In this document: in pieces, positions 201-48,905 of the stretch
How the letters are laid out: every line of letters begins with the position of its first letter
Position numbering within the stretch: the first letter of the stretch is position 1
Assembly (NCBI GenBank): GCA_004431415.1
Contig: QPMI01000521.1
Span: 1 to 64,000, forward strand
Source of the DNA: Cyanophora paradoxa CCMP329
Lineage: Eukaryota > Plantae > Glaucophyta
Reading direction: 5' to 3'
DNA: 64,000 nt
Position numbers and translations under genes: made by a program
Notes under the pieces: generated by a model
What the model was told of the DNA's origin: nothing
Database searches by the model: none
Seen by the model: only the letters and a program-made list of their open reading frames with translations

Positions 201-208
201 AAAATTGA
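201..208 (+). promoter_or_regulatory. AAAATTGA giant-virus-type early promoter motif
   Basis: CGCCAAAAATTGACAA just upstream of a small gene, nearly identical to CGCCAAAAAATGACAA at 6268. Confidence 0.5.
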
Positions 209-224
209 CAAACGATTTCCCATC

Positions 225-495
225 ATGCTGTAAAGGAAACATGCCGATTAACCAGCAATTCACAATTTCCATGGGACTTACATCTTGATTGTAAAAGAAC
301 TCAAGATCATTATGAGATCTTTCAAGAGATGGGATTGCGAATTACAAGGAGATCAACCTTTGTAGATTCTTGAAAAAGAATGGTGCTAAATGGGATAAGA
401 CAATTCGCCGATGGTATACAGAAGATCAAGAGTCCCCTTCTTAATATTTTCGAGACAGATGGGGATTTCAGGATCGGTTTAATCATTACCAATAG
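225..495 (+). pseudogene. Small frameshifted gene with a DUF5710-like motif
   Basis: + strand reads ...LKKNGAKWDKTIRRWY..., matching the GAKWDxxxxxWY motif of small viral proteins. Boundaries uncertain. Confidence 0.35.
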
Positions 496-1399
496 CCAAG
501 AACTCAACTGGAATGAGTTGTCAATTCCATTCATATCTACAAGATCACCATAATAATCGCGAAACTCAACTGTTAACTCTCTAATCACCAAGGTTTCGAT
601 CGGTTATTTTTATGTATTCACTGTGCTCTCCACTGTGATAAACATACTGTCCAATATCTTTACTTAATTGCAATCTGAGAATCGCCCCTTGATTCTGTGG
701 TTGAGATTGGGACAATATTGTGGTTTGTAGCAAATGGGGAGAGTTCTTTAATGTGCATGTATAAATACTGTTCTGCATTCATATCTGTCATCTTGGCTGC
801 TTCTAACTTGTAGTTTAAGCGAGATGCCTCGAATTCATATCCTGTGAATGTTATTCCCATTGGGATGGTTTGGGGTGATTGGTATTCCTGCAAATAAAGG
901 AAATTCTCGGGGCATATAAAGACCTTGCAGACTCTGGGAAATCGTATCTGTTCAATGGAAGCACCCATCACAGAACTCACCCCAAGAAGTTTACCCAATC
1001 TCTGTGTAGATGCAACCATATCGAATTGAACATTACTGTAAAACTCCAATTTGTAGGAGGTAGGTTGTAGTAGACCTTGAATGCATATGTGAGATTGTTG
1101 CTCCCAGTAAATGTGAAATTCAGACCATAATTATATGGACTGGTGACCCCGAAATGACCTTGATTTATATAACCACTTGGGAGAAGGAAGACCTGTTTGG
1201 TTTCAGAGATGCCTTGGTAGTAGAATCTGACAAGAAGGTGGTCTGTTCCAATGGAGTTATAGATGCTGTTGGGGATCTCTGCATACAAAACTCGACATTC
1301 TCTTGGTTTGGTCACTGGGGTTGTGAGTGAAACTTTGTAGGAGTTTTCTATTTGTCCATCTGATCGGTCTCTGCTATCTATATTGACCAGCCGAATCAT
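479..1399 (-). pseudogene. Minor capsid protein/penton B (frameshifted)
   Basis: N-terminal IDSRDR...AEIPNS and C-terminal LTVEFRDYYGDLVDMNG, split over four ORF-track fragments. Homologous to 58616-59571. Confidence 0.75.
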
Positions 1400-1427
1400 T
1401 TTAATATATGTTTATAGATAAAAGAAG

Positions 1428-2425
1428 ATGCCTGTGGATTACATCGAATGAGCCTTTCAATACAATTTCGGGAGATGGACCAACTTCGAGTTTTATTGCT
1501 CGCCTCCCCAGCACCTATGAATTTGTGAGAGCCAGTAAGACTGGTTTCAGCAGAATTCTATAACAGCATTCCCATGGTGAGTGGTGAAACCAAAGTAGGA
1601 GATGTGACAATAGATAATGCAATCTACCTTTATTGGTCTGAATATTATTCTGGTGCAGGAAGCACTGTATTCCAAACTGATCGACCTGCTGCCGATTATG
1701 AGCAATGGAAGCACATTGTGATAAGTCGCAGCACACCCATTCAAACCACCAACAACTGGTGAATGTAATTAACTCCAAACTTGCATGAGAGAGCCCAGTA
1801 GCAATTCGCTGTAAATGGGATGATACACTGAAACGAGTAATATTCCATTCCCACCATACCGTTTTACCTGGCTTTCTCAACTGCAATAAACCCAACCAGG
1901 CGCAGATTCAGAGGTTTTTGAGTTCTGCTCGACTGCTTGTCTTGATCCTGGGAGATATGGTAACACCCCAATCCAATCACAGTTTAAATACTCTGACTGA
2001 TGGTATCTTTACTGGGTCGATGGTGCATGGTATCATATCTTCATTTGAACCTGAAAAGACCAGGGATAGTGTTCTGTTTGTGAGAGTAAAGGAGTTGGGT
2101 GATCTGGTTCAATGTGGTGATGGTCTCCTCACTGGATATTTCCACAAAATCGTTGTTCAGATAAAGATTATGGTGAGCATGTCGTTTATAATTCGACAGA
2201 AGCCCATCGATTTATAAATACTATAACAAGAATCTGGACTTTCCACATTTTCGGTTGATATTGTGAATGCAGTTAATGAACCAATGATTTCGAGGGTCAA
2301 CCTGTCCACCTCACCTTCGAAATTCGATATGGTGATGAACCTGCTGGTGATCCTGTGTACGAATACTTTAAGAGGAGAATGCGGAAACACATCCATCTTA
2401 TCCAGTTATTGCGAATTTTGCGTAA
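1428..2425 (+). pseudogene. Minor capsid protein/penton A (heavily frameshifted)
   Basis: Fragments MPVDY, RLVSAE, YLYW, VRVKELGDLV...GYFHKI and IRYGDEP align with the intact 57632-58588 gene. Confidence 0.72.
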
Positions 2426-2479
2426 AATCAAGGATCATTGGTGAATTTTTTATGTTGCAGTATAATAAAAGAGATAATC

Positions 2480-3846
2480 ATGGATATTACTTCGACCCTC
2501 CAACGTCTTTCTCTGAAAGAAGCTCTAACAACCCCGGAGAAGCCAAGGCGTTCTTCTTGGACAACTCTCTCATGCTTGGTCTTGAATCCAAGTCGAAGCC
2601 AGTTCTTGTTGTTGTGAACCCAAGCAACACTTTCGAGAATAATGCTGGAAATCGCATTTCTTTCAAGCTCCCTCGCTACAATTCTGTGGAAAACTCGAAC
2701 TTGCGTTTGACCTTCCAGCTGTCACTTTGCTGGTGATACCGACCTTGTTCGCAATGGATACGTTCGCCCAGTTGGTGCTCTTGTCTCTCGACTTGAAATT
2801 ACCTATGGATCTTACACCTTCCATGTGCCTTCTGATTTCCTTGCTCATTTCCTCTTATCTATTACAGTGAGGATCAACTCGCAAGAAGAAGCGTTCAATG
2901 GAATGGTTCATGGTATCCTGCCCATGGAACCAACCGACTTGGTGGGTCATTTTTCACTGAAATCCCAGTCCCATGGCTAAACCACTACCTACCTCTTGGT
3001 GCTCTCTCAGGAGAAATGGTGGTAACTGTCTGGTTCAAGGATGCTGGAAAGGGTTATGTCGAGACTTCTTATGGTGGTCGTGCTCTTCCTGTTGTTGGTG
3101 GAACAGCTGCTGATAAGACAGAAGATGATGGACTTGGTGCTACTGCTAATGCTACTCTTGCCCATGTTGGTCAACAAATCACCACTTTTGGAATTGGTGC
3201 AACAACAACCCCCGAAATTAAAGTCACTTCTCCTCGTCTTTACATGCATGCTATTAATGTTTCTGATGAACTGTTTGCTACTGTCATTGAGAAGGTGAAG
3301 ACCACTGGTATGGCTATTCCTGCTCTGGATATTGGTTTTGTTGACAGTGTCAATTTTGCTGCAAAAGGCAATGCTCAACCAAATCGTATTAACCTGTCAC
3401 AGATCTCTGGTCTTGTCTATGGTCTTCTTGTTTCAGTTCGTGATGCCGCAGGTATTGATGGTTTCAATGGTTCCCACAGTGTCCTAAAAACGCATGCTAA
3501 CTCAAAAGACATTACTTTCACTGTTGAAATTAATGGTCAACGTCTCTATGCTACTGAGCCCATCCCTCTCCTCAAAGGTGCCGAATTAATTGCGGATGCC
3601 TTCAAGTGCTCAAATATGGACAAGGTTGCAGACAAATATGTCCTCAGTGGTCTACCATTCTGTGTTGATGGAGAGAAAGCGATTCGCAACATTGCCCAGT
3701 CTGGCTATGTTGATCTCACGAACTCCTCCTCTTCTTTCCTTACTCTATATATGCCTTCTGACCAGACAATCACAGTTAATGTTCGTGCTCTCATGCACAG
3801 TTTCATTATTGTTGACAAAGATGGTCTTCGTCGCATTAATCTGTAA
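2480..3846 (+). pseudogene. Major capsid protein (double jelly-roll, PLV-sized ~455 aa; 5' half frameshifted)
   Basis: Lies between penton and ATPase and is strongly similar to 56193-57580 (RINLSQISGL, ELIADxFKCSN, GLPFC, GLRxxNL). Several 1-nt deletions in 2530-2920. Confidence 0.78.
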
Positions 3847-3908
3847 AACCATTATCAGTAACAGTTTGTTATTTTTATCTATCTTTAATAAGAAAGATCT
3901 ACAAAGCC

Positions 3909-4691
3909 ATGAACGATTTAGAAGAGTTTAATGCAGGCGAAATGATAACCCCACCATTTCGTGCTCTTTTCATAGGAAAGTCTGCAACAGGCAAGTCAGA
4001 ATGTGTGAAATATTGGTTGAAACAGCTGCATGATGCGAAAAAGATTGATACTGTTCTTGTTGTGAGTGGGACGTCCTTCAATCATTTCTGGGATGCAGTT
4101 GCAACATTGCAACTCGGGAAATGGGATGCTGCTTACATTTCCAAATTACTGGATGAAAGGCAGGAGAAAATCGAAAAAGGGGAACCTGTGAATCAAATGT
4201 GTATTGTCCTTGATGATTTAATAGATAATGAGTTAGTCGATTTAACTCGCGATAAAATTGTTGGCTCTGTTTTCAATCGCGGAAGACACTCGGCAGTATC
4301 CTGTATCTGCATAACTCAGAAATTGCGTAAGGTTTCTTCAACAATTCGAGTAAATTCGGATTATGCTGTGTTCCTGAGTGCTGCTAATCGCAAAGAGCTC
4401 GAAGCAATCGAGGAGGAATACAATATCATGCGAAACAAAGACGATTTCTATAAGATGTTTGAGGAGTATGTGCACTCTTACCAATATATTGTGTGGTCTT
4501 CTGCGAATTATTCGGTGAACTATTATGTTGATAAAGCGGATCTGGTTAAAGACTTTAAGTTTCCTCGGTTCCACAGGAAGCCCAAAAAGAAAGAGGACGA
4601 ATTACCACCTCCACAGAAAGAGGAAGCCCCCAAAGAGGTCAAGAGTGGTGTTCATTCGAATAAACTGATGCGATATAAGAGAGGTTTGTAA
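3909..4691 (+). CDS. A32-like genome packaging ATPase
   Basis: Walker A GKSATGKS, Walker B IVLDD, RGRH, ITQ...IRVNSDY. Confidence 0.92.
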   Translation: MNDLEEFNAGEMITPPFRALFIGKSATGKSECVKYWLKQLHDAKKIDTVLVVSGTSFNHFWDAVATLQLGKWDAAYISKLLDERQEKIEKGEPVNQMCIVLDDLIDNELVDLTRDKIVGSVFNRGRHSAVSCICITQKLRKVSSTIRVNSDYAVFLSAANRKELEAIEEEYNIMRNKDDFYKMFEEYVHSYQYIVWSSANYSVNYYVDKADLVKDFKFPRFHRKPKKKEDELPPPQKEEAPKEVKSGVHSNKLMRYKRGL

Positions 4692-4719
4692 AATAATCTC
4701 TGCTTCTAATAAATATACA

Positions 4720-5454
4720 ATGCCTTCCAAACGCAAAGTTGGTGTTCCTGCTGGTGCTATGTCATATTCTGCATCCTCTGGAACCGGTTCTATTAACACA
4801 GATCCCATGAAATTCAATGGTGTCAATGAAGTGAAAGCATCACAGCAACAGGAGGATCCCCTTAATGCTGCTTACGAAGAATCACCAGATGATAAAGCGC
4901 CCCAAGCATCCACCAGTGATCAACTCAATATTTCGCCCGAAACCTCTAAGATGAAGGCAGTTGGTGAAGGTGCTCGTCGAATTATTGGTGCTGCTGATGA
5001 TAAAGGACTGGGTCTGCAAGATCTCTCACTGGCTCGCAAAGGTGAAGGTGTCTCCAAAGAATCAGACAAGGTAATTCAATCCATGGCTGGTGAGGTCACC
5101 TACAAGGTCGCACCTACACAGAATATTCATCGAATTCCCAAAGCCCAATGGGACGAAATGACTGCGAAACTGAAAGATCTGGAAGCGAAATCGAGTGCTC
5201 TCGAACAGTATGTCTCTGAGAAGAAAGAGAGAGCGAAATTGAAGGAGATGCTGCGAAAGGAGGTGTACAGAATGGGAATCACTGGTCTCCCAGATAAGCA
5301 ATTCATTGGTAAGAAAGAAACTCAAATCGATGAGCAGGCAGTTGATGAGATGAAGACCAAAACCCAGAAGGGCACCATTGAACCTGGTGCTACCAAATCA
5401 GAGGTCGATAAAGGTGTTGCCCCAACAGTATATAAACGACGAGTATGGCTTTAA
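4720..5454 (+). CDS. Conserved coiled-coil protein next to the ATPase (putative core/virion protein)
   Basis: KAQWDEMTAKLKDLEAKS...ERAKLKEMLR matches the element 2 gene 54727-55364 in the same syntenic position. Confidence 0.65.
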   Translation: MPSKRKVGVPAGAMSYSASSGTGSINTDPMKFNGVNEVKASQQQEDPLNAAYEESPDDKAPQASTSDQLNISPETSKMKAVGEGARRIIGAADDKGLGLQDLSLARKGEGVSKESDKVIQSMAGEVTYKVAPTQNIHRIPKAQWDEMTAKLKDLEAKSSALEQYVSEKKERAKLKEMLRKEVYRMGITGLPDKQFIGKKETQIDEQAVDEMKTKTQKGTIEPGATKSEVDKGVAPTVYKRRVWL

Positions 5455-5481
5455 TTATCTCGCATTAAGAGAGAGAGCATC

Positions 5482-5715
5482 ATGGATTTCTTGCGAAAAA
5501 TCATAGAGATGTTTAATCTCCACATTGTGAGCAATTGTCACAGTGGCTGCTGTGAAACCAAAGTCGAAATCGAGTTTTCAGATACTGAAAGCCACGGATC
5601 TGGTGGTAGGAGATTATCCACAGACTCGGTGGATTTCGAGGAGCATATTAAAACAGAGACTGTGAGGCGACGCTCTGTATCTTTCACAGATCCAAAATTA
5701 AATCTCGGTAATTAA
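5482..5715 (+). CDS. Small viral protein with SxCHSGCC motif
   Basis: Clean ORF with an AT-rich upstream motif. Function unknown. Confidence 0.5.
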   Translation: MDFLRKIIEMFNLHIVSNCHSGCCETKVEIEFSDTESHGSGGRRLSTDSVDFEEHIKTETVRRRSVSFTDPKLNLGN

Positions 5716-5826
5716 TATCGAATGCTCAGTCTCTCTGAGATCTATGCTCTCCTTGACAGGAAATCCGCTGAATATGCATCCGAAGCCGCAATAAAAAAGC
5801 GTAGACAGGAACTGGTCTCGATCTGC

Positions 5827-5840
5827 AAAAAATGACAAGG
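5827..5840 (+). promoter_or_regulatory. AAAAAATGACAAGG early-promoter-like motif
   Basis: Identical 14-mer at 6272-6285. About 76 nt upstream of ORF 5916. Confidence 0.5.
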
Positions 5841-5915
5841 GATGTAAGGGTAAGGTGTGTTTGATTGGTGAACCGGACAAATTATTTTCTCGTCCCATTA
5901 TAAGGAACATATCAA

Positions 5916-6143
5916 ATGGAAACTGAATCTGTGGTCGAATTCGAACTTGCAATGAGCGAAATGGATCCCAATGAGAGGAAAAGGTTGTATGACCGCTTGT
6001 ACTTCCAGAAACGCTATCAAGATGAGGAGTTTCGTGAATTATATCGTAAAAAGGCACTGGAACGATATTATCGCAGGAAAGCTGCTGAGATGGATCCCAA
6101 TAATCCAGTAAAACGCCCAGTTGGTCGTCCCAGGAAATACTGA
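5916..6143 (+). CDS. Small basic putative DNA-binding protein with AT-hook
   Basis: KRYQDEEFRELYRKKALERYYRRK...GRPRK. Related to 53505-53780. Confidence 0.6.
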   Translation: METESVVEFELAMSEMDPNERKRLYDRLYFQKRYQDEEFRELYRKKALERYYRRKAAEMDPNNPVKRPVGRPRKY

Positions 6144-6271
6144 ACCGCCCCCAAAGTCCCAAATATCCGCTGAATCCTTTTTGTTACCATGATCAATCGA
6201 CGTTTCGATGGATCATTACCATATATCGAGCGCCAATCGGAAAACCCAAAGGTATTTAAAGGTTAGGCGCC

Positions 6272-6285
6272 AAAAAATGACAAGG
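6272..6285 (+). promoter_or_regulatory. AAAAAATGACAAGG early-promoter-like motif
   Basis: About 53 nt upstream of the primase-helicase ATG. Confidence 0.5.
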
Positions 6286-6337
6286 ATCCGGAGAAATTAA
6301 TTTCTCCATTAAGTATAAGAAGCCCCCGATTTTCGAA

Positions 6338-8699
6338 ATGAACGCTGCCGCCAAGAAATCCCTGAAACGCCTTGTTGACTGGCTTCGTGAAGACGATGTC
6401 CTGTCTGAGAATCTCGTAATTCCTGTTGATCCTGATACCAAAAAACCCTTTTCGCTCATAAAGACGGAGCCTGGAATTGGGATAAATTCGATGAAGCCCT
6501 GAAATCCGGTAAGTATACTGCTTGGGGCATTCTCGCTCGTAATATCATGGTAATTGACTTTGACCAAGAGGAGGATTTCGCCAAATTCGAGGAGCAATTC
6601 CCTGATGATTTCGGTGGTGTCAATCCTCTTGCTAAAACCAAAAAAGGATATCATGCATTCTTCGCTCGACCTGCTGAATTCGACACCATTAAGATCTGGG
6701 ATAAAGCGGGTGCATTCAAAGGAAACCCAAGATCGATTGCAAAACAATTGCATCCACTGGGACTGCTGGGGTAATTAATGTTTGTCCCAGTCCCAACAAA
6801 ACCTGGATCAGAGAGCCATGGGCATCTGAGTGTGAGTTAAATGAACCCACTGCTGAGTTGCAAAAGTGGATTGTTGACAACTACGAATTCCCCAAAGGTG
6901 CACATTCTTATATTGTGAGGAGCATTGAGGAGAATTTGCAGAAACACATTCTTTCTAAACTCGAAGAATTCGGTTTCATCTTGCCCACAATCATCAATGA
7001 GACCAAGATGGGATACAATTTCACTGCTGAGAACAAAGGTCTGATCTGTCCCTGCTGCAAGGGAAGCCATGACTCAAACAATTGGTATATTATTCAAGGG
7101 AAGGAGAAAGACAAGTACATTGTTTCGAGTTACAGTGCAAACTGCAAGAAGCGAAGCATCACTGTTCGTGTGAAGGAAGAGACAGATGTGAAGATCGAAA
7201 ATCTGATTGATCGGTCTGCTGGATCTGATGGTGCCCATTATGATGTTGCACAGGTTGCCTATCTTGTTCTGCAAGACAAATACAAGTATTCCAACAAGAC
7301 CTGGTTCAAGTTCAATGATATATGTGGGATTTGGGAGTTGGATGAAACTGGGAAGCGAATCTTTCTCTGTTTGAGCTGCAAGGTCTGTCCAGTTTATCTT
7401 CAACGTTCTGTTCAACTCGCACAGAGAGCTCTTCGTGATGAAGAGAACCGCAATTCCTTGGAGGAAAGGTGAAAGATTCTGCTGGGAATTGCTAAGAGCC
7501 TCAAACAGACTACATACAGAACTGCACTTATGTCTGATCTTTCAGTTCTGTTCAGTGACAAGACCTTTTTCGAGAGACTTGATACTGTTCCCAACATCAT
7601 AGGATTCACAAATGGTGTATTTGACTTGAACTCCATGACTTTTCGACAGGGACTCCCAGATGATATGGTGAGCAAGACTGTTGGCTACGATTATACCACA
7701 GAAATCGACCAAGAGAAGGTTGCAAAGATTAAGTCCATCTATGCAGATATTATTGAATCGGATACAGACCGCGAATTTATGTTGGGATTAATCGCCTATG
7801 CCCTGAGTGGTTTGACAGAAAATCAGAGATACACTTGTTGGACTGGAATTGGAGCAAATGGGAAATCTCTGCTCCAAGAGTTGGTGAAAGACACATTTGG
7901 TGAATACTATGGGTCACTGGATATGACCTATTGGACGAAACCCAAGAAGAGTTCATCAGAGGCTTCCCCAGAACTCGCTTGCATCCTTGGTAAACGAATT
8001 GTTTTCAGTAATGAAGCAGAAGATGGTGATATGCTTCAACTGAACAAAATCAAACAAGTTACTGGTGGGAATGAGATGAAGGTTCGAACTCTATTCAAAG
8101 ATCTTGTAACATTCATTCCCATGTTCCAGTTGTTCTTGTCTACAAATGACAATCTGGGAATCAGTAAACCAGATGCAGCAATCCAAAGGCGAATTATCTA
8201 CTACCGATTCGAAAATGTCTTCAAGGTGGAACCTCAACCTGGTGAGAAGAAGGCAGACACCACTCTCATGCGCCTCATGAAGAATGATGATGATTATAAA
8301 ATGGCGCATATGTCCATTCTCCTGGAAATGTGGAGAACCCATTCTCTCAATACATTCGTCACCAAACCTCCCCAGTCCATTGTTGATCAAGGTATGGAGT
8401 ATTTCAATGAGAATGACAAGATTGGAGAGTGGATTCGAGAGAATTATGAACTCACCAAGAGTCAAGGCGATTTCACTACAAGTGAGTCCATCATGAGTGA
8501 CTTCAAGAGAGACCACATGGGCAAATCTGATGAGAAAATCTCAGATTGCACCATTATGAAGAGACTTCGCGAAGTCTTTAATGTGAAGTCTGACAGAAAA
8601 CGAGTGAATGGTGTACTTTGCCGTGGTTACTTTGGGATCATAAAGAAGCATGGTCGCAGATTGATGGATGACAGTGATGAGGAGGTTGGGGATGAGTAA
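6338..8699 (+). pseudogene. AEP (Prim-Pol) primase fused to a Zn finger and D5-like SF3 helicase (2 frameshifts, 1 in-frame TGA)
   Basis: Primase motifs VIDFD, TKKGYH and KIDCK...GVINVCPS; CPCCKGSH; Walker A GIGANGKS, Walker B FSNE, motif C STN, AIQRRI. TGA at 7470-7472 is in frame with ORF 7530. Confidence 0.88.
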
Positions 8700-8764
8700 A
8701 TAAAACGGAATCAATACTTATACTGTGAATTTCTAATTTTTTAAAACCCTTACTGTAAATGGTT

Positions 8765-8910
8765 TGTGTGACAGGTGTGACAGGTATTTTAATTGACTGT
8801 GACGGGTGTGACAGGTGTGACAGGTGTTTTCAGGAGTCTGAGGATTTTTAAAAAGTTTAAAAAGTTTGAAAATAGGTGTCACACCTGTCACACCCGTCAC
8901 ACCCAATTAA
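8765..8910. repeat. Palindromic TGTGACAGG iteron array around an AT-rich core (origin-like)
   Basis: 9-bp repeats in opposing orientation flanking an A/T-run spacer, right after the helicase gene. Confidence 0.75.
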
Positions 8911-8997
8911 CCACAGACTCCCCCCTGTGGGTCGATCACTTTTCCGAAGAATAATCGAAGGATATCAAAACGTATCGGAAATCGGTGTGTTGTGACA

Positions 8998-9005
8998 AAA
9001 ATTGA
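8998..9005 (+). promoter_or_regulatory. AAAATTGA giant-virus-type early promoter motif
   Basis: About 49 nt upstream of ORF 9054, which precedes pPolB. Confidence 0.55.
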
Positions 9006-9053
9006 CTGGCGATTTAAGGGATCGTTGCGTGTTTCACTTGACTAAGACAGAAA

Positions 9054-9320
9054 ATGGATTATTTCGATGAAATTCGGCGGCAGCTTGTCGAAAAGAATGA
9101 TATTGCAGAGGTGGCGGATTATATTGCAAAGATCAAAGCAATTAACGGTAGACCCTATCAAAAGAAGCGTGTTTATGCAAGCAGACTCGACACAGTAAAT
9201 GTATATGTCCCAAAGGCACGAATGTGCGAATTATCAGAACCTGAAAAATGGGAAATGCGTTTAAAATGCCCAAAAATAATATGTTCCCTTAAAGTAAAAG
9301 ATGCCCCGCCAATCCAATAG
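9054..9320 (+). CDS. Hypothetical viral protein
   Basis: ORF downstream of the early motif, overlapping the pPolB start. Confidence 0.45.
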   Translation: MDYFDEIRRQLVEKNDIAEVADYIAKIKAINGRPYQKKRVYASRLDTVNVYVPKARMCELSEPEKWEMRLKCPKIICSLKVKDAPPIQ

Positions 9321-12300
9321 AATCATCAAAGAGAAGAAAAACGAAATACTCGGTCTTTTAGGAACCCTTTTAGTTACTGGTGATATTACAGAATTCGAAT
9401 ATGATCGCCAGGCAGCAATCTTGGATAGGAGACCAAGGTTATCTCAACTCACAGAAATTACAAATCGCCTCTATGATCGTTTTGAGAAAATGGAGGATTT
9501 CAGGGATGAAGGTTTAAGGTTGGGAACAATTGAACCCGAGATTGAGGATGGGGAAGCAATGAACAAAGCATATTCTTGGTTAACCTATCGAGCAAGAGGG
9601 GAGGTTATCCAAGATGGGATTGAATTCTTGGAGAGAATTGCACCCACTCTACCTCAGAGACTCAGACAGAAACTCCAAGACCTGAGAGCAATTGAGACTC
9701 GGTTGACCTTCATTTGTAAATTCACCAAAGTGAGTGATCCAAGGGTGTGGATCACCAAATTCATTTACAGTGATTACTTTGTCATCACAAGATCACGAAA
9801 TATTGATGTTGAACTGCGAAATGCCCTTCAATCCATGCAGGAGCAGATGATGCAAGTTGACAGTTACAGACTGGATCGCATTGAGATGCTCAGAGTAGTA
9901 ATAATGTCCTATGCTCCTGTGGGTGGTTGCTTCTTCTCAACACCTGAGTGGATTGGATTAAAGAGAGCAACTGTGAATGTGAAGAATATTGATGGTCAAG
10001 ACTGCTTCAAGTATGCAATCTTGGCTTACCTGCACCGAAATGATATTAATAAACACAAGAGCAATGAACCCAGCCAGTATAGAAGATGGTTGAACGAACT
10101 CAATTTCGAGGGCATCCAATTTCCAGTTGCCTGTGATGCAGAGGTGATTGATCGATTTGAGGAGCAGAACCCTGAACTGAGTATCAACATTTATGGGGCA
10201 GATAATACTGCACAGTGTTTCTATCCTCTCCACCAATCCAGCAACCCCAGGAGAAAGACCAAGATTAACCTTTTATTAATCGAAAACGAAGAGGATGATA
10301 GAGGGCATTATATCACCATCATGTCTCTGAGTAGACTTCTGAAAACCACCTTTGATAAAGCCCATGATGGTCGCATTTATTACTGTGAGACCTGTCTGTC
10401 TCGTTTCAGAACTCAGGAGAAGCTGGATGTACATATAGAAGCGAATCGCTGCATTGATTGGAGGGAGAGCAAAGGTAAATGCCCGAAATCTGGAAGTCAC
10501 ATTGCATTTGGTCTGCAACACCTTCGCAAAACTGTGTGGCTTCCCGCTATCTGCTATGTGAAAATGGATAGTCACTCGGTTCCAATTGATGAGAACCGCA
10601 GTAAGAGAGAGGTAAAATCGGTTTCTCTAACAGTTGTGATGGGGGATGAGGTGATCTCTCATTATTTTGATGGATCAGATCCCCTTGGTGCTCTGTTTAC
10701 CACTCTCACAGAGATCAGACCCAAGTAATTCGCACTCTATTCACCAATATTCCCATGCATCCACTCACAGAGGAGCAGAAAGCACAATACAAGATCACTA
10801 AACACTGTTATATCTGTGCTGAACGATTTACCCATGAGAATTTCCCAGTGAGAGACCATTGTCATCAATCAGGAGCTTTTATTGGAAAAGCATGCCGAAA
10901 CTGCAACCTCCACAGGAGAATCTCAAAGCAAACGAAAGTAGCAATTGTGGTGGATCACATGGATGAATGTGGACACGAAATATTCCGCAAAATTGCACAG
11001 CAAGATGATAAACTTCGTGTTGAGATCCTGAGCAAGAATTTCGATCAATACCTCTCTCTGCAATGGGGCATGTGGAAATTCATAGATGCTTCGCACTTCA
11101 TGGACTTCCAGGCAGTGGATGCAAGTGATCTAATGGGTAAATTCCAGAAATTCCGAGAATTGGCGTTTTCCCAATATGGATTAGATCCTGCCCATTATGT
11201 TTCGGCTCCTGGATTGTCCTGGGATGCAATGCTAATTTACACCAGAGCAAAGATCGAGCAGATCAGTGATGTAGGGCAATAAGAATTTATTGAGAGGGCA
11301 ATTCGAGGTGGGTTTGCTACAATGCCTACTCGATATGCAAAGGTGGAAAACCCAGATGACCATATAGTTCTCTTGGATGCAAATAATCTGTATGGTTATG
11401 CTCTCATTCAAGAACTGCCCATTGGAGATTTTCGTTGGGAAGATGTCACAGAGGCACTTAAAGAGACCCAAGGACGAAGTGCCTTTATTGAAGTTGACCT
11501 GGAATACCCACAAACTCTCACAGATCATTACGATTTTCCACTTGTAGTTAATAAAGAACATGTCACCACCGAAATGCTGGGTGGGTATCAACAAAAACTA
11601 CTGGATATCACAGGTGAGAAGATAAGCAAAGACCCCAAACTCACAGCAACATTCTCGCCCAAAAACAACTATGTGATTTCCCAACCTCTCTTGATCTATC
11701 TTGTGAGCAAAGGTATTATAATCACGAAGGTTCACAGGGTTCTCTCATTTGCAACCTCTGCATTTATGAAGAGTTATATTGATCTAAATACGAAACTGAG
11801 GCGCCAATCTATGTCCAGATTCGAGAGTGACTTCTTTAAATTAATGAACAATGCAATCTATGGTAAATGCCTCGAATCATGCAGGGGTCGCTCTGTGGTT
11901 AAGATTGCTAACAGTGAGAAACTCTGCAAGAAATATGCTGCAAGTCCACTCATCAAGGCAACCAATGTATTAAACGAAAAAGCTGTTGCCTTTGAGATGT
12001 ACTCAAAGCATGTTCACTTAGATAAACCTGTTGCAATTGGTGCTTTTGTGCTGGATTTCGCGAAACTCCATAATAGCAGGTTCTTTTATGATGTGGTGAG
12101 GAGAACTTGGGAAACAGCAGAGCTACTATTCCATGATACAGATTCTTTCTGTCTACTGCTGCATACAAATGATCTAAATAATGAGATGAAGCGAATTTCT
12201 GAACACCTGGATTGCAGTAATTATGATACTGCCCACCCTCTCTATGATAGGAGAAATCGCTTGATTCCAGGTAAATATAAAAACGAGTTTCCCAATGCAA

Positions 12301-12581
12301 AGATTGTGGAGTATGTAGGTCTGAGATCGAAACTCTATGCTTTCAGAACTGAGACCTTTGATAAAATAAAAATGTCTGGGACTTCCTCCAAAGAGGTTCA
12401 CTTTGATGATTTCAAAAGATGCTTGTTTGAAGGAATCACCAAAACAGTAGCAGTAGTAAACAAGCGAAGACAAGACCACAACCTATATGATTTGGAGAGC
12501 AGAAGGGTGGCTCTAAACCAACTCGATAGCAAAAGGAAGATATTAGACGATGGAATTCACAGCATTCCATTTGGGCTCTAA
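9301..12581 (+). pseudogene. Protein-primed-type family B DNA polymerase with vOTU-like and endonuclease-VII-like Zn domains (frameshift ~10723, in-frame TAA 11280)
   Basis: DCFKYAI...GHY; CYIC...RDHCH...CRNCN; AIRGG, LDANNLYG, KLMNNAIYGK, HDTDS, GLRSKLY. Confidence 0.9.
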
Positions 12582-12764
12582 TCTACTTCATCAATCTTTC
12601 TTTTTCTTTGGTTTCGCTCTCCAAGAAGTAACAAACCGCGAATTAAATGCAGCAGCCATATACATCTTAATCCTGGATCATTGGGCTCAATTGCAAAGTA
12701 GTTGGGAATTGTGTTCTCCTTCCACACAGAGTCTTGCATTTATTATATGAGAGATAAGGTAAAG

Positions 12765-14259
12765 ATGCCTTCTACACAAATAGGATTGAGACAACCACCC
12801 AGAATTGTTAGAAAAGAAGCAATTGAAGATCGAGGAATATTCTGCCCATCACAGTTCCAGTGGAGGAGAAGAGCAGTCGAATATTAAAAAGATCAGAGAT
12901 GGTCAAGCAATTAATTCCAGAGACCCTCCCAGCTGAGACAGCACCAAAAGAGTCGAAGATTGCTAAGAAGTTCTATGATCCCAGAACAGGTTACAAGGGA
13001 TTTACTGCAATGAGACAGGAACTACCAGAGGAGAACTACAAGAAAATGAGAGAATGGTATGATAAGCAGGAGGTTGTCCAAATTAATGCACCTACCCTAT
13101 CTCGAAAGAGAGATCCCATGATTCCAATTAGGCAACCCCTTGATACATATGTGATTGATCTGCTCTTCTTTCCTGCATACAAAAAGCAGAATGATGGTTA
13201 TGATACATTTATGAGTGCAATGGAATCAACCCTAAGAACTGGGTTCATCATTCCAATGAGAGACAAGAGTGCTCTTACTACACTTGCAGCATTCAAGCAA
13301 CTTGAACAGAGAGTCCCCAGACCAATTGTTCGCATTCAGAGTGATAGTGGAAGCGAATTTACCAATGTCTTATTCACAGATTATCTGGGAACCAAATTCA
13401 TTGAGCATCAACTAAGTGATGTTGCAGATCACAGAACCCAAGGTCGGATTGAAGCCTTTAACAGACAGATCAAGAGATTAATCACAAACTACTGCATTGC
13501 AAATAATACTGCACGATTTTTTGATGTGTTGGGTGATATTGAGTATAATTATAATAATACCATTCACTCTGCAACCAAGAGAAAACCAGCAGAGACCACA
13601 GAAGCCCACTACAAAGAGATTGTGAATATGGAGGATCAGAGATTCAAGAAATCGATTGAGTATCTTGATGCTCTGAAACCTGGAATGTTTGTGAGAGTGA
13701 AAGTTGAAAAGAACCCATTTGCAAAGCAGGGAGTTAATTGGTCTCGAATTGTTTATAGTGTGGAGGGCAGAGAGGGCTTCAAGTTCAGAATCAGAAGTCC
13801 CAGTGGTGAGATAGTTGATGGTAGATTCGCTTTTCATGAACTGCTGCCCATTAAAGGCGTTGAGTATCATGAAACTCCCACAGTGGATGCTCTTGAACAG
13901 GCAAAGGAGGAAGCCAGGGTTGATTCAGCAATCAGAAAGGAGGGCATAGAAAAAGCAAGTGAAGTACCAAAAGAACCCTTACAGAAGCAAGAGCACAAAA
14001 GAAGGGTAGAGTAGAGAAAGAATTAAAGAAGTTGACCATAGCAGGAACCAGAAATTATCAGAAGTTAACAGTCAGAGATGGTATAATGACTTTTCAACCA
14101 CCAAGGAAACATATACTGCACCCCAAACTCGATTCAATCTACGAAGTGGGCAGAGGAAATAGATTAACAACGCTTTCGGAATCTCTTAGACCTCTGGCGA
14201 ATTTTTCTCATTTGTCTATCTTTTTCAAGAATTTCCAAGAAGAAAGTTTCAAGGTTTGA
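12765..14259 (+). pseudogene. Retroviral-like (rve) DDE integrase of Polinton type (frameshifts ~12835 and ~14010)
   Basis: YVIDL, IQSDSGSEF, RIEAFN, YNNTIHS, SH3-like PGMFVRV. The tail (KKLTIAGT) matches the element 2 integrase once a 5-bp TAGAG duplication is removed. Confidence 0.88.
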
Positions 14260-14406
14260 AACCAGTTGGTAATTATAAACAAAGAACAGTCTCACATGCT
14301 CTGGCTGTGACATGAAGAAATTGTAATAGAAAGCAGTTTTGAAATCATGGATCCAGTCTGATTGGGCAGCATGGATGATAGCAGGGTCTTGGTAGATGGG
14401 ATCCAT
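14164..14406 (-). CDS. Small hypothetical viral protein (MDPIYQ...)
   Basis: ORF preceded by AAAATTGACAAGG on the - strand. Confidence 0.4.
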   Translation of the reverse strand: MDPIYQDPAIIHAAQSDWIHDFKTAFYYNFFMSQPEHVRLFFVYNYQLVSNLETFFLEILEKDRQMRKIRQRSKRFRKRC

Positions 14407-14433
14407 AGCAGAAGTTGAGAGAATCCAGGAAGT

Positions 14434-14446
14434 CCTTGTCAATTTT
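14434..14446 (-). promoter_or_regulatory. AAAATTGACAAGG early promoter motif
   Basis: Reverse complement of CCTTGTCAATTTT, ~30 nt upstream of ATG 14406. Confidence 0.55.
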
Positions 14447-14570
14447 TTATTTTGTTAGTGCCCGATCTCGACGAAACCTGATAGCCGCTGGCGAGAGGAT
14501 TCCGAATCTGCTTTCAGAATTGAAAACGGAGCAGTTGGTAATAAAATACATATGTATGACCGAGATTGAT

Positions 14571-14680
14571 GGAGTTTCAGTGAAGTTTCGGTGAAGTTTC
14601 GGTGCGAAGTTTCGGTGAAGTTTCGTAGCGAAGTTTCTATGAAGTTTCGGTGAAGTTTCGGTGAAGTTTCGGTGAAGTTT
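14571..14680. repeat. 11-bp tandem repeat (GAAGTTTCGGT)n
   Basis: About 9-10 imperfect units read directly. Confidence 0.9.
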
Positions 14681-14827
14681 TGAGTGACGTCATGAGTGTC
14701 GTTTCGGTTCGCGAACAATTAAGTGGACATGGCGGCGTCCCGTCGTTTTTTTGAAAAGGTGTCCTCGAAAATCGTGCCCCGTCACTTTCGTGAACCGGTG
14801 TCCTCGAAAATATATCTTATCCTGATG

Positions 14828-15063
14828 AAAAAAATTGGTTGCGCGTCATCGCAACCATCATCGCAACCATGGTTGCATCATCGCAACCGTCATCGCAACC
14901 ATGGTTGCATCATCGCAACCAGGTCGCGCAACCACTCAATCGGAAAAAAATTGGTTGCGCATCATCTCAATAGTTAAAAAAATGGTTGCGCGCAACCAGC
15001 GCAACCATGGTTGCATCATCGCAACCATCATCGCAATCGCAACCATGCAGGTCGCGCAACCAC
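14828..15063. repeat. CATCGCAACC/GGTTGCG satellite-like repeats
   Basis: Three blocks starting AAAAAAWTGGTTGCGC with multiple CATCGCAACC units. Confidence 0.85.
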
Positions 15064-15520
15064 TATGACGTCATGACATCACATGTTTCATGATATATAT
15101 ATACACCATACATTTCGTGTGACCCTGAGCCCCAGAGTCGCCGACCGATCGCGACCAATCCGCTATTTTGTGGTCAAAATGTATATTTGCGCATATATAC
15201 TTGACGGTTCGCGTTACTACTGTCGGCATCGCGTAACGTTCCCACTGTGGGGCTTTCGGCATCTTCAAACGCTTGTATCTCACCACCAGATCATCAGATC
15301 GTGACCGTCAACATAGCGCTGGAAAGCGCTTGCAAAGACCTACACGATGGTGTAGGTATCAAGTACATATACGTATATATTACATACAAATATTTCGAAA
15401 AAACGATTAATCGGCTACTTTCTACTGTAAGGAACATACAGTAAAATAATGCGAAAATACAGTAGCTACTGTAAAAAATCGCCATAATCTGGTGCACCAT
15501 ACATCAGAAGTCCTGATGTA

Positions 15521-17061: not shown

Positions 17062-17110
17062 CTTTACTTTACTCAAATTTAATAAATCTCTATAAGTAAA
17101 GTGAACAGGG

Positions 17111-20100: not shown

Positions 20101-20447
20101 GATGCATTACAGAAGCAGATCTTTCCAGTCAACTCAATGCATATTTTAATGGGAAAATTCAAGCAGGTAAGTATGTTTACACTACTCCTGTTTTAAATTA
20201 CAATAATCTATATGTGTTCAATCTTACTATCTATTTTACCAATGCCTTTGCTTCTCCTCCTGTTGTTACAGCAACTGTAAGGCATGAAGGACAAGAACCA
20301 AATTATCAAGTAACTCCCGTCATTTTTACTGTGAACCTGTTGAATGTTTACAGTAACTATTTCACTTGTGAACTTTTCACTGATCCATATGCAATGAATA
20401 ATTCATCCAAAACTGTAACAATCCATTACATTGCTGTCGCAATTTAA
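17111..20447 (+). pseudogene. Giant fibre protein (~1100 aa) with acidic repeats, HxH tail-fibre repeats and a C-terminal H-lectin/gp53-like head (frameshifts ~18753, ~19480)
   Basis: EEYLPDG repeats, FPPEDHxHxW repeats, HTHTKSQITDFA repeats, FTNAFASPPVV...IHYIAVA. Continuity across 18753 is confirmed by the homologue at 62184. Confidence 0.75.
19527..19886 (+). repeat. Ten 36-bp coding repeats (HTHTKxEITDFA)
   Basis: Translated by hand, in frame with ORF 19932. Confidence 0.9.
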
Positions 20448-20466
20448 CTATTTGATTAATATAAAG

Positions 20467-21513
20467 ATGACCTCTCTATTAGAAATCCCAAACTATGAAC
20501 TTGCAGCCAAATCACTGCACAGCACCTCTCATGGAGTAGTTGATTCAACCCCTGGGTATATTTGTACTGAAACTTCAAGTAATACCTCTTTCACAGAGAA
20601 TAATATACTCAGAGTCAAAGAAATTCGATGTGATAGGAATGGAGGCAAGATAAGAACCACAGGAATTATTATCTCGAATAAAAATCAGGTTCAAGCAGGT
20701 CAAGTAGTCCCAGATTCAGCAATATATGATAATGTAGGTGGATTTACCACAGCACAGATAGTTTCTTTTGGTAACACAAGTAATACTTCCGCTCTTGTAG
20801 TCAAGAGTGGAGGAGCATACTTTGGAGAGGCATTAAAGGTGAATGGAACAGTAACAGCATCCATACTAAATGCTGGAAGTGGAATGTTTGAGAGTCCAAT
20901 AAATTTTGAGGGTGGATATAATGCGAGTAGTTTTTCAGTTGGTGTTGGTGTCTTTTCCACAATGTTAAACACACCTGAAATTGAATCATCGAATGCACTC
21001 AATATCAAGAGAAATGCAGTGGTTACAGCAACCATAAACAATGTTTCCCCTTCAATAAATCTAATTAAATATCTGAAAGCTCCTCACCCTCGGTTTTGTA
21101 TTGTAAATTATTCAACATCAGCAGTTACTGTGGGAACCACATCAACAGCAAGAAGATTCGCTTTTAACAGAACTCTTGTGGATGCAAGCAATAATATCAC
21201 ATTATCCACAGGCACCTTTACAGCACCTGTGTCCGGAATTTATAGATTCTTCTTCATTGTTCAAATGTCAACAGCTTCATCAACAGGGGAGTGTAGAGTT
21301 GCATTTAGAAAGAATGATTTGGCTCTTTCCCCTCAATCGGTTCAAGAATTTTCAACTTACAATGGAAGGCGAAGTGTTCATATGGAGGCTTCTTTTGCTG
21401 TATATGCGAACGAATTTGTGAATGTTATACAAACCTGGACATCGTCCATGCAATATGATGCTACAATACAAGGTATTACCTGTTTTGGGGGGCATCTCAT
21501 CAGTAGATTATAA
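20467..21513 (+). CDS. Spike/fibre paralogue 1 with C-terminal C1q-like domain
   Basis: Shared N-domain (RVKEIRCDRNGG) and GTFTAPVSGIYRF C1q signature. Confidence 0.72.
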   Translation: MTSLLEIPNYELAAKSLHSTSHGVVDSTPGYICTETSSNTSFTENNILRVKEIRCDRNGGKIRTTGIIISNKNQVQAGQVVPDSAIYDNVGGFTTAQIVSFGNTSNTSALVVKSGGAYFGEALKVNGTVTASILNAGSGMFESPINFEGGYNASSFSVGVGVFSTMLNTPEIESSNALNIKRNAVVTATINNVSPSINLIKYLKAPHPRFCIVNYSTSAVTVGTTSTARRFAFNRTLVDASNNITLSTGTFTAPVSGIYRFFFIVQMSTASSTGECRVAFRKNDLALSPQSVQEFSTYNGRRSVHMEASFAVYANEFVNVIQTWTSSMQYDATIQGITCFGGHLISRL

Positions 21514-21535
21514 ACTTTTTGTTGGGAATTTATAG

Positions 21536-22546
21536 ATGGCTACCCAAATTGCAGTTCCTGTTTTCTGTTATGCAGCACCTAAATTGCATCAACTGAACCA
21601 CACAGTTACAGATGCTATTCCCGGGTTTATTTGCACAGAAACCACAGGAGCAGATTCGTTTACTCAAAATTCGATTATCAGATGCAAGGAGATTCGATGT
21701 GATAGAAATGCTGGAAAAATAAGAACCACACAATTAATCGTAAGTAACAAGAATCAGGTGTTAACAGGTGGTGTAGTTGCTGATGCAGCTATTTATGATG
21801 ATGCAGGTGGGGTGACCACACCACAGATTGTTACTTTTGATGGGACAGAAAATAATGCAGCACTTGTAGTTAAATCAGGTGGAGCATGGATAGGTTCGGG
21901 AGCTTTTGTGAATGGAACACTCTCAGCTGCAAACGTCTCAATTTCAGGCCAAACGACATTTACAGGTGTTGTGAATGCAAATGGTGGTCTTTTTGTTCCT
22001 ACTTATACAGTCCCTGTGATGACCACAACCACAAAGATTCAAACACCTGAAATAGATACAGGAGCAAATGTAGATCTCATTCTGAAACGCAATAGCACAG
22101 AAGTCGCACGAATTGATGCAGGGGGTCTTACAATCGCAGCAAACTTTTATTTGAAGCAAGAAACCCAACCTCGATTTTGTGTTGGGTTTGGTGTAGCAAC
22201 AAGAAGTGGAGTATATGGGCGTCTTACTAATTGGTTGCATGAATTCTTTGATAATACCAACTCATTTGATGTAGTAGAAGGGAAATTCACAGCGCCTATA
22301 AGTGGAGATTATAGATTCTCTCTTAATTCTTATAGTATTGTTACCTCATCTGTGAGTGTAGATCTGAAAGTAAATGATCAGAATGTTTCAACAGAATTCA
22401 ATTTCAGGGTAAACAACTCACAAACAGTAACCAACAAAACAATCATTTTGAGCGCAATACTCAGACTTGGAGCCGGGATAATGTCTCTATTTATGCTGTT
22501 GATACTTCCATTTCAGAATTCACAACGTTTAGTGGCGAATTGCTGA
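21536..22546 (+). CDS. Spike/fibre paralogue 2 with C-terminal C1q-like domain (probable late frameshift)
   Basis: RCKEIRCDRNAG and GKFTAPISGDYRF. Confidence 0.72.
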   Translation: MATQIAVPVFCYAAPKLHQLNHTVTDAIPGFICTETTGADSFTQNSIIRCKEIRCDRNAGKIRTTQLIVSNKNQVLTGGVVADAAIYDDAGGVTTPQIVTFDGTENNAALVVKSGGAWIGSGAFVNGTLSAANVSISGQTTFTGVVNANGGLFVPTYTVPVMTTTTKIQTPEIDTGANVDLILKRNSTEVARIDAGGLTIAANFYLKQETQPRFCVGFGVATRSGVYGRLTNWLHEFFDNTNSFDVVEGKFTAPISGDYRFSLNSYSIVTSSVSVDLKVNDQNVSTEFNFRVNNSQTVTNKTIILSAILRLGAGIMSLFMLLILPFQNSQRLVANC

Positions 22547-22576
22547 GCATAATTTAATTTCTACAAGTAGTTTAGA

Positions 22577-22840
22577 ATGTCGAATATATACCAAGTAGTT
22601 CTGACTGATACCGAAAAGTTGGGAATGGAATATTGCGCTGCTTCTGTTCAGGACTGGATTGATAATGCTGCCCACAACAGGGCAAGAATCGCAATTGATG
22701 AGATTGTTCAGAAAGAGATCCAATCTTGCATCTCATCAGGAGTTCAGATACCAACCTCAAAGGAAGCGATTGTATTACAGGCATTCCAAAGGGGAACTGT
22801 AAAGAAAGGCATCGAGTATAACAATGTCACAGAAGAGTAG
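22577..22840 (+). CDS. Small protein resembling phage fibre-associated proteins
   Basis: LTDTE...MEY...QDWIDNAAHNRARIAIDEI resembles small genes that follow C1q-type fibres in marine phages (recalled, not searched). Confidence 0.5.
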   Translation: MSNIYQVVLTDTEKLGMEYCAASVQDWIDNAAHNRARIAIDEIVQKEIQSCISSGVQIPTSKEAIVLQAFQRGTVKKGIEYNNVTEE

Positions 22841-22878
22841 TGTACATTATTTTTCTTTCCTTCTTAGTAAAAGAAGCA

Positions 22879-23724
22879 ATGGGTGAATATAATCGAGTTC
22901 AACTTCCAATATATTCCCTTGGATCCCCTGCTATGCACTTTCGCCAGCATGAAGTTAATGATGAGGTTCGTGGTTTAGAATCCACAGAGAGACCCAATTC
23001 CAATGGTAACTCTTTTGATAAGAATTCGATTATTCGAGTTAAAGAACTGAGAGCAGACAAGAATTCGGGTGTGGTTAAAACAACTCGACTCCTTGTCTCA
23101 AATGCGAACTTCTTCCAACCCACTAATGGAGGTCCTGATGCTTACAGTGTAGACCTGAAAGCCCTCGATTTTGACAAGAATTCTGCTGCTGTAACTGTGA
23201 GATCAGGTGGAGCATTTATTGGTGGTGGTTGCAGAGTTTCAGGTCAACTCTCCTCATCAATTGCATACAATGATGTCCCAGATACTCTTGAACAGAATGT
23301 TGAAGACCCACAACGAATTCGATTATATATACCAGTTGCACAACAGCCAATTATTCAATTTTACCAAGGTTATACTGTCACACTTGAAAACTCTGAATTG
23401 ATTGAAGGAACCAAAAGAGTAATGAGAGGGCTGGTCATTCCTTCTGCAATGCTTTCTTTATGTAGAGCCAACAATAACCAGCCAGGTCACAGATACAATT
23501 TCAGTGTTCAAGGATATGATCATTTCGGCACAGGGTTCTGTGTTTATAATAACAATTTCACCTATGATCTGTTTGTTACAGATATTGGAAAATATACAAT
23601 TACAGTTATGGGTATCAGAACAGATATAGCTGCTGTCTCAGCTCTAAGAGGTGTTACTCCTGATACTCTTTCTCAAACAGGGTTTTACCAGGAACCAGAT
23701 GTGATTGATAACCCAACCCCATAA
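22879..23724 (+). CDS. Spike/fibre paralogue 3
   Basis: Shared N-domain (RVKELRADKNSG...KTTRLLVSN) with a different C-terminus. Confidence 0.65.
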   Translation: MGEYNRVQLPIYSLGSPAMHFRQHEVNDEVRGLESTERPNSNGNSFDKNSIIRVKELRADKNSGVVKTTRLLVSNANFFQPTNGGPDAYSVDLKALDFDKNSAAVTVRSGGAFIGGGCRVSGQLSSSIAYNDVPDTLEQNVEDPQRIRLYIPVAQQPIIQFYQGYTVTLENSELIEGTKRVMRGLVIPSAMLSLCRANNNQPGHRYNFSVQGYDHFGTGFCVYNNNFTYDLFVTDIGKYTITVMGIRTDIAAVSALRGVTPDTLSQTGFYQEPDVIDNPTP

Positions 23725-23747
23725 ATTATATATTACTTTAATGTAAA

Positions 23748-24574: not shown

Positions 24575-24599
24575 AAATCTCAGGTATATATAGAGAGGA

Positions 24600-48903: not shown

Positions 48904-48905
48904 TG

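Follow-up and report, generated by a model that had tools for sequence, protein, structure and literature searches.

Two classes of promoter-like box divide the genes of an integrated Polinton-like virus of Cyanophora paradoxa

The DNA analysed here (the window) is a 64,000 nt stretch of contig QPMI01000521.1 (nt 1–64,000, forward strand) of the glaucophyte alga Cyanophora paradoxa CCMP329. Element 1 (~41% GC) runs from nt 1 to ~26.9 kb and is followed by a GC-rich stretch (27–46 kb); element 2 (~45% GC) fills the remainder from ~46 kb onwards. Element 1 is an integrated Polinton-like virus (PLV) of ~26 kb, and the two elements appear by sequence to be related PLVs. In element 1, an early-type box, AAAAAWTGAC, stands before a primase-helicase gene and four small genes, while an AT-rich, bipartite, late-type box stands before most of the others, including the genes for capsid, packaging ATPase, fibres, DNA polymerase and integrase.

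The left terminal inverted repeat arm of element 1 (nt 3–193, +), clipped by the start of the window, is 100% complementary over 191 nt to nt 25365–25555. The latter lies within a right terminal region (nt 25365–26720) that also carries TGTGACA hairpins and additional repeats, and past ~27,000 the GC content climbs from ~39% to ~75%. Size and ends are those expected of a PLV (an integrated element of 15–40 kb with terminal inverted repeats), the left end and the target-site duplication lying outside the window. The major capsid protein gene (nt 2480–3846, +, frameshifted in the assembly) has a sole close database relative, P0001 (EukProt EP00741_Cyanophora_paradoxa), which is 51% identical over 447 columns; overall, P0001 shares 51–57% identity with the element 1 capsid and 60–75% with that of element 2. 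The structure model of this homologue (predicted local distance difference test score 61.6) matches the PBCV-1 capsid in Foldseek (E 4.8e-17), from which the double jelly-roll fold typical of PLVs is predicted for element 1; a PDB sequence search using the capsid alignment gave zero matches. The A32 packaging ATPase, likewise characteristic of PLVs, is encoded at nt 3909–4691 (+; Pox_A32, E 7.5e-12), and a candidate minor capsid protein (single jelly-roll) may lie at nt ~1428–2440, judging from its position and a weak homology to element 2.

The primase-D5 helicase gene (nt 6338–8699, +, frameshifted in the assembly) specifies D5_N and DUF5906 domains; its relatives (786–1243 aa) are only 26–35% identical and indicate no helper lineage. 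The gene for a protein-primed family B DNA polymerase (pPolB; nt 9301–12581, +) is fragmented in the assembly, and its pieces have no Pfam polymerase match of their own; they share 22% identity (pairwise E 7e-7) with the pPolB of element 2, a DNA_pol_B_2 protein (E 7e-59). A retroviral-type (rve) integrase is encoded at nt 12765–14014 (+; rve E 0.0014, under the cut-off) and is 28% identical to the integrase of element 2. Genes for rve integrase and pPolB are also part of the gene content of mavirus. Further domains of element 1 are patatin, discoidin, H-lectin, C1q and AdoMet decarboxylase (AdoMetDC). No RNA polymerase was matched by the 31 open reading frames (ORFs) of element 1 plus 9 additional pieces, a result compatible with a helper-dependent lifestyle like that of the PLV Gezel-14T (discussed below), and not sufficient for it. 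Nor was a Sputnik-family capsid or a cysteine protease found among the 31 ORFs, where frameshifted pieces could conceal a protease; the same profile library does recognise the capsid of a virophage-like locus (L065). With the virophage combination of capsid and protease not found, element 1 is a PLV and not a canonical virophage (Maveriviricetes). Related loci were not found in viral contig and metagenome contig collections. About half of the sampled sequence words occur in twenty DNA runs of a single organism. Contigs from these short-read runs contain many variants of the element, and because they disagree with the window at several frameshifts, many of the breaks look like assembly errors.

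The first-pass annotation had described the 9-mer AAAAWTGAC as an early promoter motif of giant-virus type and listed it at five positions. All five exist (nt 201+, 5828+, 6273+, 8998+ and 14446−), the second and third having been given as 5827 and 6272, where the 10-mer AAAAAWTGAC starts. Four further matches went unlisted, three of them antisense within genes (2954−, 3357− and 20327−) and one in the terminal repeats (25882+); all nine are in element 1. The 10-mer occurs exactly five times in the window, each time on the sense strand of the gene it precedes; neither element 2 nor the GC-rich host stretch contains a copy. Box 1 (AAAAATTGAC, nt 200–209, +), just inside the left terminal arm, lies 41 nt before the ATG at 241 of a small, frameshifted, DUF5710-like gene (E 7.8e-5, under the Pfam cut-off). 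Box 2 (AAAAAATGACAAGG, nt 5827–5840, +) lies 89 nt before a gene (nt 5916–6143) whose 75-aa basic product ends in an AT-hook-like stretch and for which an atlas similarity to small AT-hook proteins (score 0.88–0.90) is a lead only; the TGA of this box doubles as the stop codon of a 37-aa ORF (nt 5722–5835). Box 3 (AAAAAATGACAAGG, nt 6272–6285, +) is found 66 nt before the primase-D5 helicase gene (ATG at 6338). Box 4 (AAAAATTGAC, nt 8997–9006, +), which has the weakest context and looks like the adjoining hairpin repeat unit, precedes an 88-aa ORF (nt 9054–9320) by 57 nt and not pPolB. Box 5 (AAAAATTGACAAGG, nt 14434–14447, −) is 41 nt before an 80-aa ORF (nt 14406–14164). The 88-aa and 80-aa ORFs matched no known family.

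A spacing within ~80 nt of the start, as first proposed, is seen at four boxes and exceeded at box 2, and the proposed AAGG extension follows the box at three of the five sites and is missing from the other two. An Imitervirales early promoter would be an exact, sense-oriented AAAATTGA, the early motif of mimiviruses and of Phaeocystis globosa virus, within ~100–150 nt of an ATG; AAAATTGA is exact in three sites, and the remaining two have the exact chlorovirus motif AATGACA instead. All five fit WWWWWTGW and none fits WWWWWTGWWWWW, the consensus applied to Antarctic PLVs. Among the 24 gene starts of element 1, the early-type box was not found before pPolB, integrase, AdoMetDC or any virion gene; its reported absence before capsid and fibre genes is borne out and extends to the ATPase. 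The box had been said to mark small or replication genes. This is true of the four small genes and the primase-helicase, but not of non-structural or replication genes in general, since it is the late-type box that stands before pPolB, the integrase, AdoMetDC and one zinc-finger gene.

A chance pattern in AT-rich intergenic DNA, or in the A-rich context of start codons, might produce such boxes, particularly as the pattern was picked after the sites had been seen and one TGA is a stop codon. Moreover, the pre-published core AAAATTGA is not enriched over the whole element (5 against 3.84 expected; 110 of 300 shuffles). The 10-mer occurs five times in nt 1–25555 against a mean of 0.41 (0 of 300 shuffles reach five), and in 5 of the 24 upstream regions against 0.03 expected (0 of 2000), an enrichment over shuffled sequence that had been proposed beforehand as a check. 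Since the 10-mer was derived from the sites themselves, fairer tests are leave-one-out scoring, in which the held-out site ranks 1, 1, 1, 1 and 2 among 51,066 positions, and the pre-published AAAATTGA, which is enriched upstream (3 of 24 regions against 0.24; 5 of 2000 shuffles). The leave-one-out ranks and AT-matched shuffles largely refute chance, and start-codon context explains little, as the ATG inside two boxes opens just 7–10 codons and the other three boxes have TTG; we regard an accidental pattern as extremely improbable. T5NT terminators follow only two of the five early genes, which is nothing notable. A search of viral contigs for CAAAAAWTGACAAGG gave at least 122 stretches; among those listed, none was homologous to the elements or had a convincing excess of boxes.

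The early-type boxes have their TGAC(A) core in common with the hairpin repeats, both terminal and internal, in whose arms TTAATTGAC occurs. The boxes could therefore be binding sites of an element-encoded or host protein that also binds the TGTGACA terminal hairpins, and serve as operators or replication-linked signals; boxes 1 and 4 adjoin hairpin repeats, the context of box 4 is like a repeat unit, and one box-bearing gene encodes the small basic AT-hook-like protein. We think this improbable, because the boxes are single, strictly sense-oriented and promoter-spaced, three are far from any repeat, the hairpin repeats do not score top with a matrix built on the five sites, and the boxes resemble published early promoters. 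The large TGTGACA-repeat hairpins are at nt 25532–25652 and 25821–25936 (right terminus), with one internal copy after the D5 gene, between it and box 4 (nt 8747–8920). In other copies of the element the 3' end of D5 runs straight into the terminal repeat (joint 38/8775), and element 1 may for this reason be a fusion of two modules bounded by terminal repeats, each opening with an early-type box.

When all 24 starts were listed, an AT-rich bipartite stretch was noticed near the ATG of the non-early genes. It was scored with the late consensus of mimivirus, W8T[AC]TN4W5[AG]TA[TG]A, unchanged from PMC11464507. At up to 2 mismatches there are 13 matches in nt 1–25555, of which 11 are sense, 24–45 nt before an ATG, and belong to 10 genes; at up to 3 mismatches 16 of the 24 starts are reached. 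The 19 starts without an early-type box include 9 with a late-type box at up to 2 mismatches, 15 at up to 3 and 18 at up to 4; the exception, at 19932, is probably a piece of a fibre gene and not a true start. The 24 starts are thus partitioned into five early and 18 others with a late-type box (up to 4 mismatches), and two of the five early genes carry both. On the plus strand, late-type boxes precede the genes for the major capsid protein (nt 2445–2469, 3 mismatches), the A32 ATPase (nt 3870–3894, 3), a 244-aa protein (nt 4689–4713, 2), a 77-aa protein (nt 5450–5474, 2), the 37-aa ORF (nt 5695–5719, 1), the primase-D5 helicase, besides box 3 (nt 6293–6317, 2; altered in one variant contig), pPolB (nt 9274–9298, 2) and the rve integrase (nt 12738, 4). 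Two overlapping boxes (nt 17063–17100, 3 mismatches each) occupy the space between divergent patatin-discoidin (−) and fibre (+) genes, and those before the C1q/fibre-like, zinc-finger and AdoMetDC genes are at nt 20441, 21512, 22552, 22850, 23723, 24570 and 25035 (range 20441–25059, +, 1–4 mismatches). A low-depth variant that lacks the 77-aa gene (nt 5477–5703) fuses its two flanking late-type boxes, which suggests that these boxes can serve as recombination or module boundaries. The AdoMetDC gene itself (nt 25059–25460) has its 3' end inside the right inverted repeat arm, and the left arm consequently holds an antisense copy.

Summed over the 19 non-early starts, mismatches to the late consensus amount to 54, compared with 86 for column-permuted forms (0 of 3000 permutations as good), 78 when only the specific letters are permuted (15 of 2000) and 80–86 for reversed or complemented forms; after local shuffling of the last 30, 35 or 40 nt, 0 of 1000 sequences fit as well. 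Control loci were 76 of the at least 122 viral stretches, each of at least 5 kb, and one automatic ORF caller was used throughout. At up to 2 mismatches the late-type box precedes 6 of 36 element 1 ORFs and 1 of 259 in 18 GC-matched, unrelated IMG/VR loci; the AT-matched comparison gives 5/12 versus 11/296 (Fisher 1.2e-4). Four positive-control loci were chosen after ranking by late-box rate and identified afterwards. In two virophage-like ones the box precedes 20 of 26 ORFs at the same offsets; these are near-identical IMG/VR contigs with a late box before most genes, L065 having a Sputnik-type capsid and L052 being called virophage-like by near identity to L065 genes. In two loci with a nucleocytovirus capsid and the GC content of element 1 (L011:983–6861 and L045:751–5585), the mimivirus-type late box stands at the same offset before 5 of 15 ORFs. 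L011 and L045 may be prasinovirus-like; the data show just a nucleocytovirus capsid. As these loci carry it, the late-type motif extends beyond the Imitervirales, and that of element 1 would be a nucleocytovirus/virophage-type late signal in a broad sense, which is no proof of a mimivirus helper. The motif ARNTTAANA was found at 1 of the 19 non-early starts, which is nothing notable, and a different late motif is given in 10.64898/2026.10.09.758095.

We propose, with a probability of roughly 0.6, that element 1 is an integrated, helper-dependent PLV with two promoter classes that are read by an as yet unisolated nucleocytovirus of the algal host. That both boxes are promoters is very probable, and there are good grounds to expect that the late-type box is read by nucleocytovirus factors; a reading of the early-type box by the early machinery of the helper is somewhat the likelier case, and a direct activation of integrated copies by the incoming virion is doubtful. 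Five non-virion genes would have AAAAAWTGAC as their early promoter, and the bipartite AT-rich box would be the late promoter of the capsid, fibre, packaging, polymerase and integrase genes. Element copies would be silent between infections; upon infection, helper factors would transcribe the primase-helicase and the four small proteins first, and the remaining genes would be read once late factors appear. C. paradoxa is reported to contain endogenised giant-virus regions, from which it follows that giant viruses have met this lineage, as well as methylated, silent repeats (PMC12344493); the CpG depletion of element 1 relative to the flank is in keeping with the proposal. What had been suggested of a giant-virus early switch is thereby retained as a nucleocytovirus-like, promoter-like box before a non-virion subset of genes in an element with no RNA polymerase found, although it introduces no new principle, given Gezel-14T, Antarctic PLVs and Sputnik. 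The suggested two-stage programme gains a sequence basis in the late-type box before most other genes, which had gone unseen, yet motif class is described as a poor guide to timing in Sputnik.

Several observations weigh against this proposal. The presence of a late-type box at pPolB is odd for a strict replication-first order, and in Sputnik the motif class predicted timing poorly, with only partial agreement (PMC11998528, PMC11464507). The mismatch limits of 2–4 were set in this analysis, the gene starts were hand-chosen in a frameshifted assembly, and just 2 of the 24 starts have a late-type box within the published limit of 1 mismatch. AT-richer unrelated loci also reach the relaxed late-type box (13 of 368 ORFs, and 8 of 74 below 33% GC). 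The 3' hairpin rule of mimivirus does not apply (2 hairpins versus 1–4 in five shuffles; 1 of 23 gene ends with z below −3), and the CroV/mavirus motif TCTA is not enriched (6 of 19 starts versus 3.4 expected; 208 of 2000 shuffles). The visible 18 kb of element 2 contains no early-type box, its pPolB and integrase starts included, and the late consensus fits its 13 starts as a whole only marginally (137 of 3000 permutations). Finally, none of the 37 variable places listed in 1,021 nt from the contigs of three DNA runs, be it a substitution or an indel, falls in boxes 2 and 3, but even in the absence of selection 0 variants in 28 nt would be expected in about 1 of 3 cases.

An abundant variant contig, joined at nt 6256 to unrelated upstream DNA, departs from the window over 107 nt by 10 letters and 2 gaps. 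Of the 10 letter differences, 7 to 8 can be placed, none of them in box 3 and several in the neighbouring late-type box. The variant data for boxes 2 and 3 confirm their letters and are too little for showing selection. They also bear on the possibility that the boxes are relics of a helper-dependent ancestor, and that the present copies are silent, transposon-like repeats that are no longer triggered. CpG depletion (observed/expected 0.53 in element 1, nt 1–25555; 0.91 in element 2, nt 49000–64000; 1.18 in the flank), the many variant contigs in the DNA runs (1,255–3,662), the lack of a significant conservation signal in the boxes, and the sister element with no early-type box and a weaker late fit are all in keeping with decay. 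The terminal arms, on the other hand, are still identical over their 191 nt, the frameshifts look like errors of assembly where short-read contigs differ from the window, and box 3 is intact in the rearranged variant, which leaves decay an improbable account.

The chlorovirus early motif AATGACA/ATGACAA (PMC5294985, PMC3946568) is exact in two of the five sites, at −62 and −85 and so within the chlorovirus hot spot of −60 to −90, and one letter off in two more; WTGACAA occurs in four of the five. Chloroviruses, among them PBCV-1, are described as lacking an RNA polymerase and are presumed to be transcribed in the nucleus by that of the host. Host RNA polymerase II, together with a factor of the host, may thus read the early-type box in the nucleus, the element priming itself with no helper and nucleocytovirus factors serving only the late class, or not even that. 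An integrated copy would be nuclear whereas virion-packaged early machinery would not, and certain PLV capsids are reported as expressed in cultures with no detectable giant virus. Three sites, however, are exact AAAATTGA/AAAAATTGA, the Imitervirales motif; the chlorovirus motif was described for large viruses without RNA polymerase and is not known from PLVs, and whether a viral factor helps in reading it is still open in the literature. The absence of the early-type box from the 19 kb GC-rich flank is a weak point against host reading. Overall we judge a host-read early class unlikely, if less so than decay or a shared hairpin-binding protein.

The chlorovirus-like extension and spacing thus allow either a host-read early class or a helper that is transcribed in the nucleus. 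A speculative form of the helper proposal, unlikely as it stands, is that the giant virus parasitised by this PLV family is of chlorovirus or prasinovirus type, infects glaucophytes, lacks a polymerase and is transcribed in the nucleus. Since the nucleus is where such a helper would act, AAAAAWTGACAAGG on chromosomal copies could be fired directly by its early factor, and a large silent family would become an immediate-early tripwire, with the late programme to follow. In that case the two boxes would preserve the promoters of a giant virus awaiting isolation. Element 1 could be a sensor of incoming virus only if early factors got to the nuclear copies. In megavirus the early factor is reported to be made late and then packaged, so a parasite's early-type box could also be fired at a late stage, within the factory; this, the timing in Sputnik and the host polymerase presumed to act at AATGACA are problems for the sensor reading.

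A giant-virus early motif in a PLV is already published, and the principle is known. Gezel-14T (PgVV-14T), a PLV virophage of Phaeocystis globosa virus (PgV), has, like element 1, a motif with a AAAATTGA core before five genes including a polymerase-helicase, and its authors conclude that it depends on helper transcription (10.1101/2022.07.28.501842). It differs in having TVpol and a tyrosine recombinase, where element 1 has pPolB, D5, an rve integrase and a glaucophyte-type host; the element 1 box is extended (…TGACAAGG) relative to its motif; and helper dependence is experimental there, while element 1 is known from sequence alone. For PgV that study gives no late motif as far as its text goes, whereas the late-type box of element 1 covers most other genes. 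Among Antarctic PLVs, 6–19% of several clades are reported to match an early consensus.

In Sputnik and Zamilon the late mimivirus motif precedes many genes (12 of 21 and 9 of 20, respectively), and in Sputnik 3 of 21 genes also have the early motif, so that both classes occur, as in element 1 (PMC11998528, PMC11464507). The split of genes into two sets is cleaner in element 1, which differs from both in that no Sputnik capsid family or protease was found, in its loose fit to the late consensus and in the lack of 3' hairpins. Mavirus and the EMALEs of Cafeteria are likewise integrated and multi-copy, and their upstream motifs, which vary by type, are taken to indicate the helper (PMC8547959). 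Those of mavirus type use the late TCTA of CroV, which is not enriched in element 1, a PLV with an added early-type class. For C. paradoxa, glaucophyte PLVs whose fibre genes encode discoidin-patatin and H-lectin domains have been described, as have contigs with an adintovirus-like polymerase (PMC12220804, PMC8502044); the same domains are present in element 1. The word 'promoter' is absent from the main text of PMC12220804, whose supplements may list element 1 itself. Literature on promoters of glaucophyte PLVs or on a two-class PLV was not found in a search that left most subscription papers, figures and supplements outside; the logos in Extended Data Fig. 6 of the Gezel study, the EMALE motif supplement and the tables of PMC12220804 may hold the motif or the element.

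The need of most integrated PLVs for a giant virus is open according to PMC12220804 and 10.64898/2026.07.28.741278. Two boxes that divide nearly the whole gene set argue more strongly for helper dependence, at the level of sequence, than a single motif would, and the added late-type box makes such dependence in element 1 more likely. The boxes also give two concrete search patterns for the helper. As the extended early-type box would be missed by the consensus of a recent PLV survey, such elements may be under-counted.

Element 2 (nt 46100–64000) carries intact pPolB and rve genes and two HNH-AP2 genes, with the same capsid, patatin and fibre set as element 1 in a different order. Its late fit is best in the structural cluster (8 starts; 37 of 3000 permutations), and a matrix trained on element 1 places 5 of its 13 starts in the top 2.2% of background. 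Duplicated TGACGTG-rich blocks (nt 48200 and 48850) upstream of its pPolB resemble plant bZIP sites, so element 2 may use another first-stage promoter. The contrast in CpG ratio suggests that the two element families may differ in the time spent under host methylation. Between the halves of element 1 there is a non-coding repeat block (nt 14558–15070), variable among copies, that consists of an array of the 11-nt GAAGTTTCGGT, CATCGCAACC repeats and two TGACGTCA palindromes. Nested inverted repeats lie at nt 33307–41250 in the GC-rich stretch, among them one of 439 nt (99%) and one of 210 nt (98%); they may represent an inverted duplication or a foldback element.

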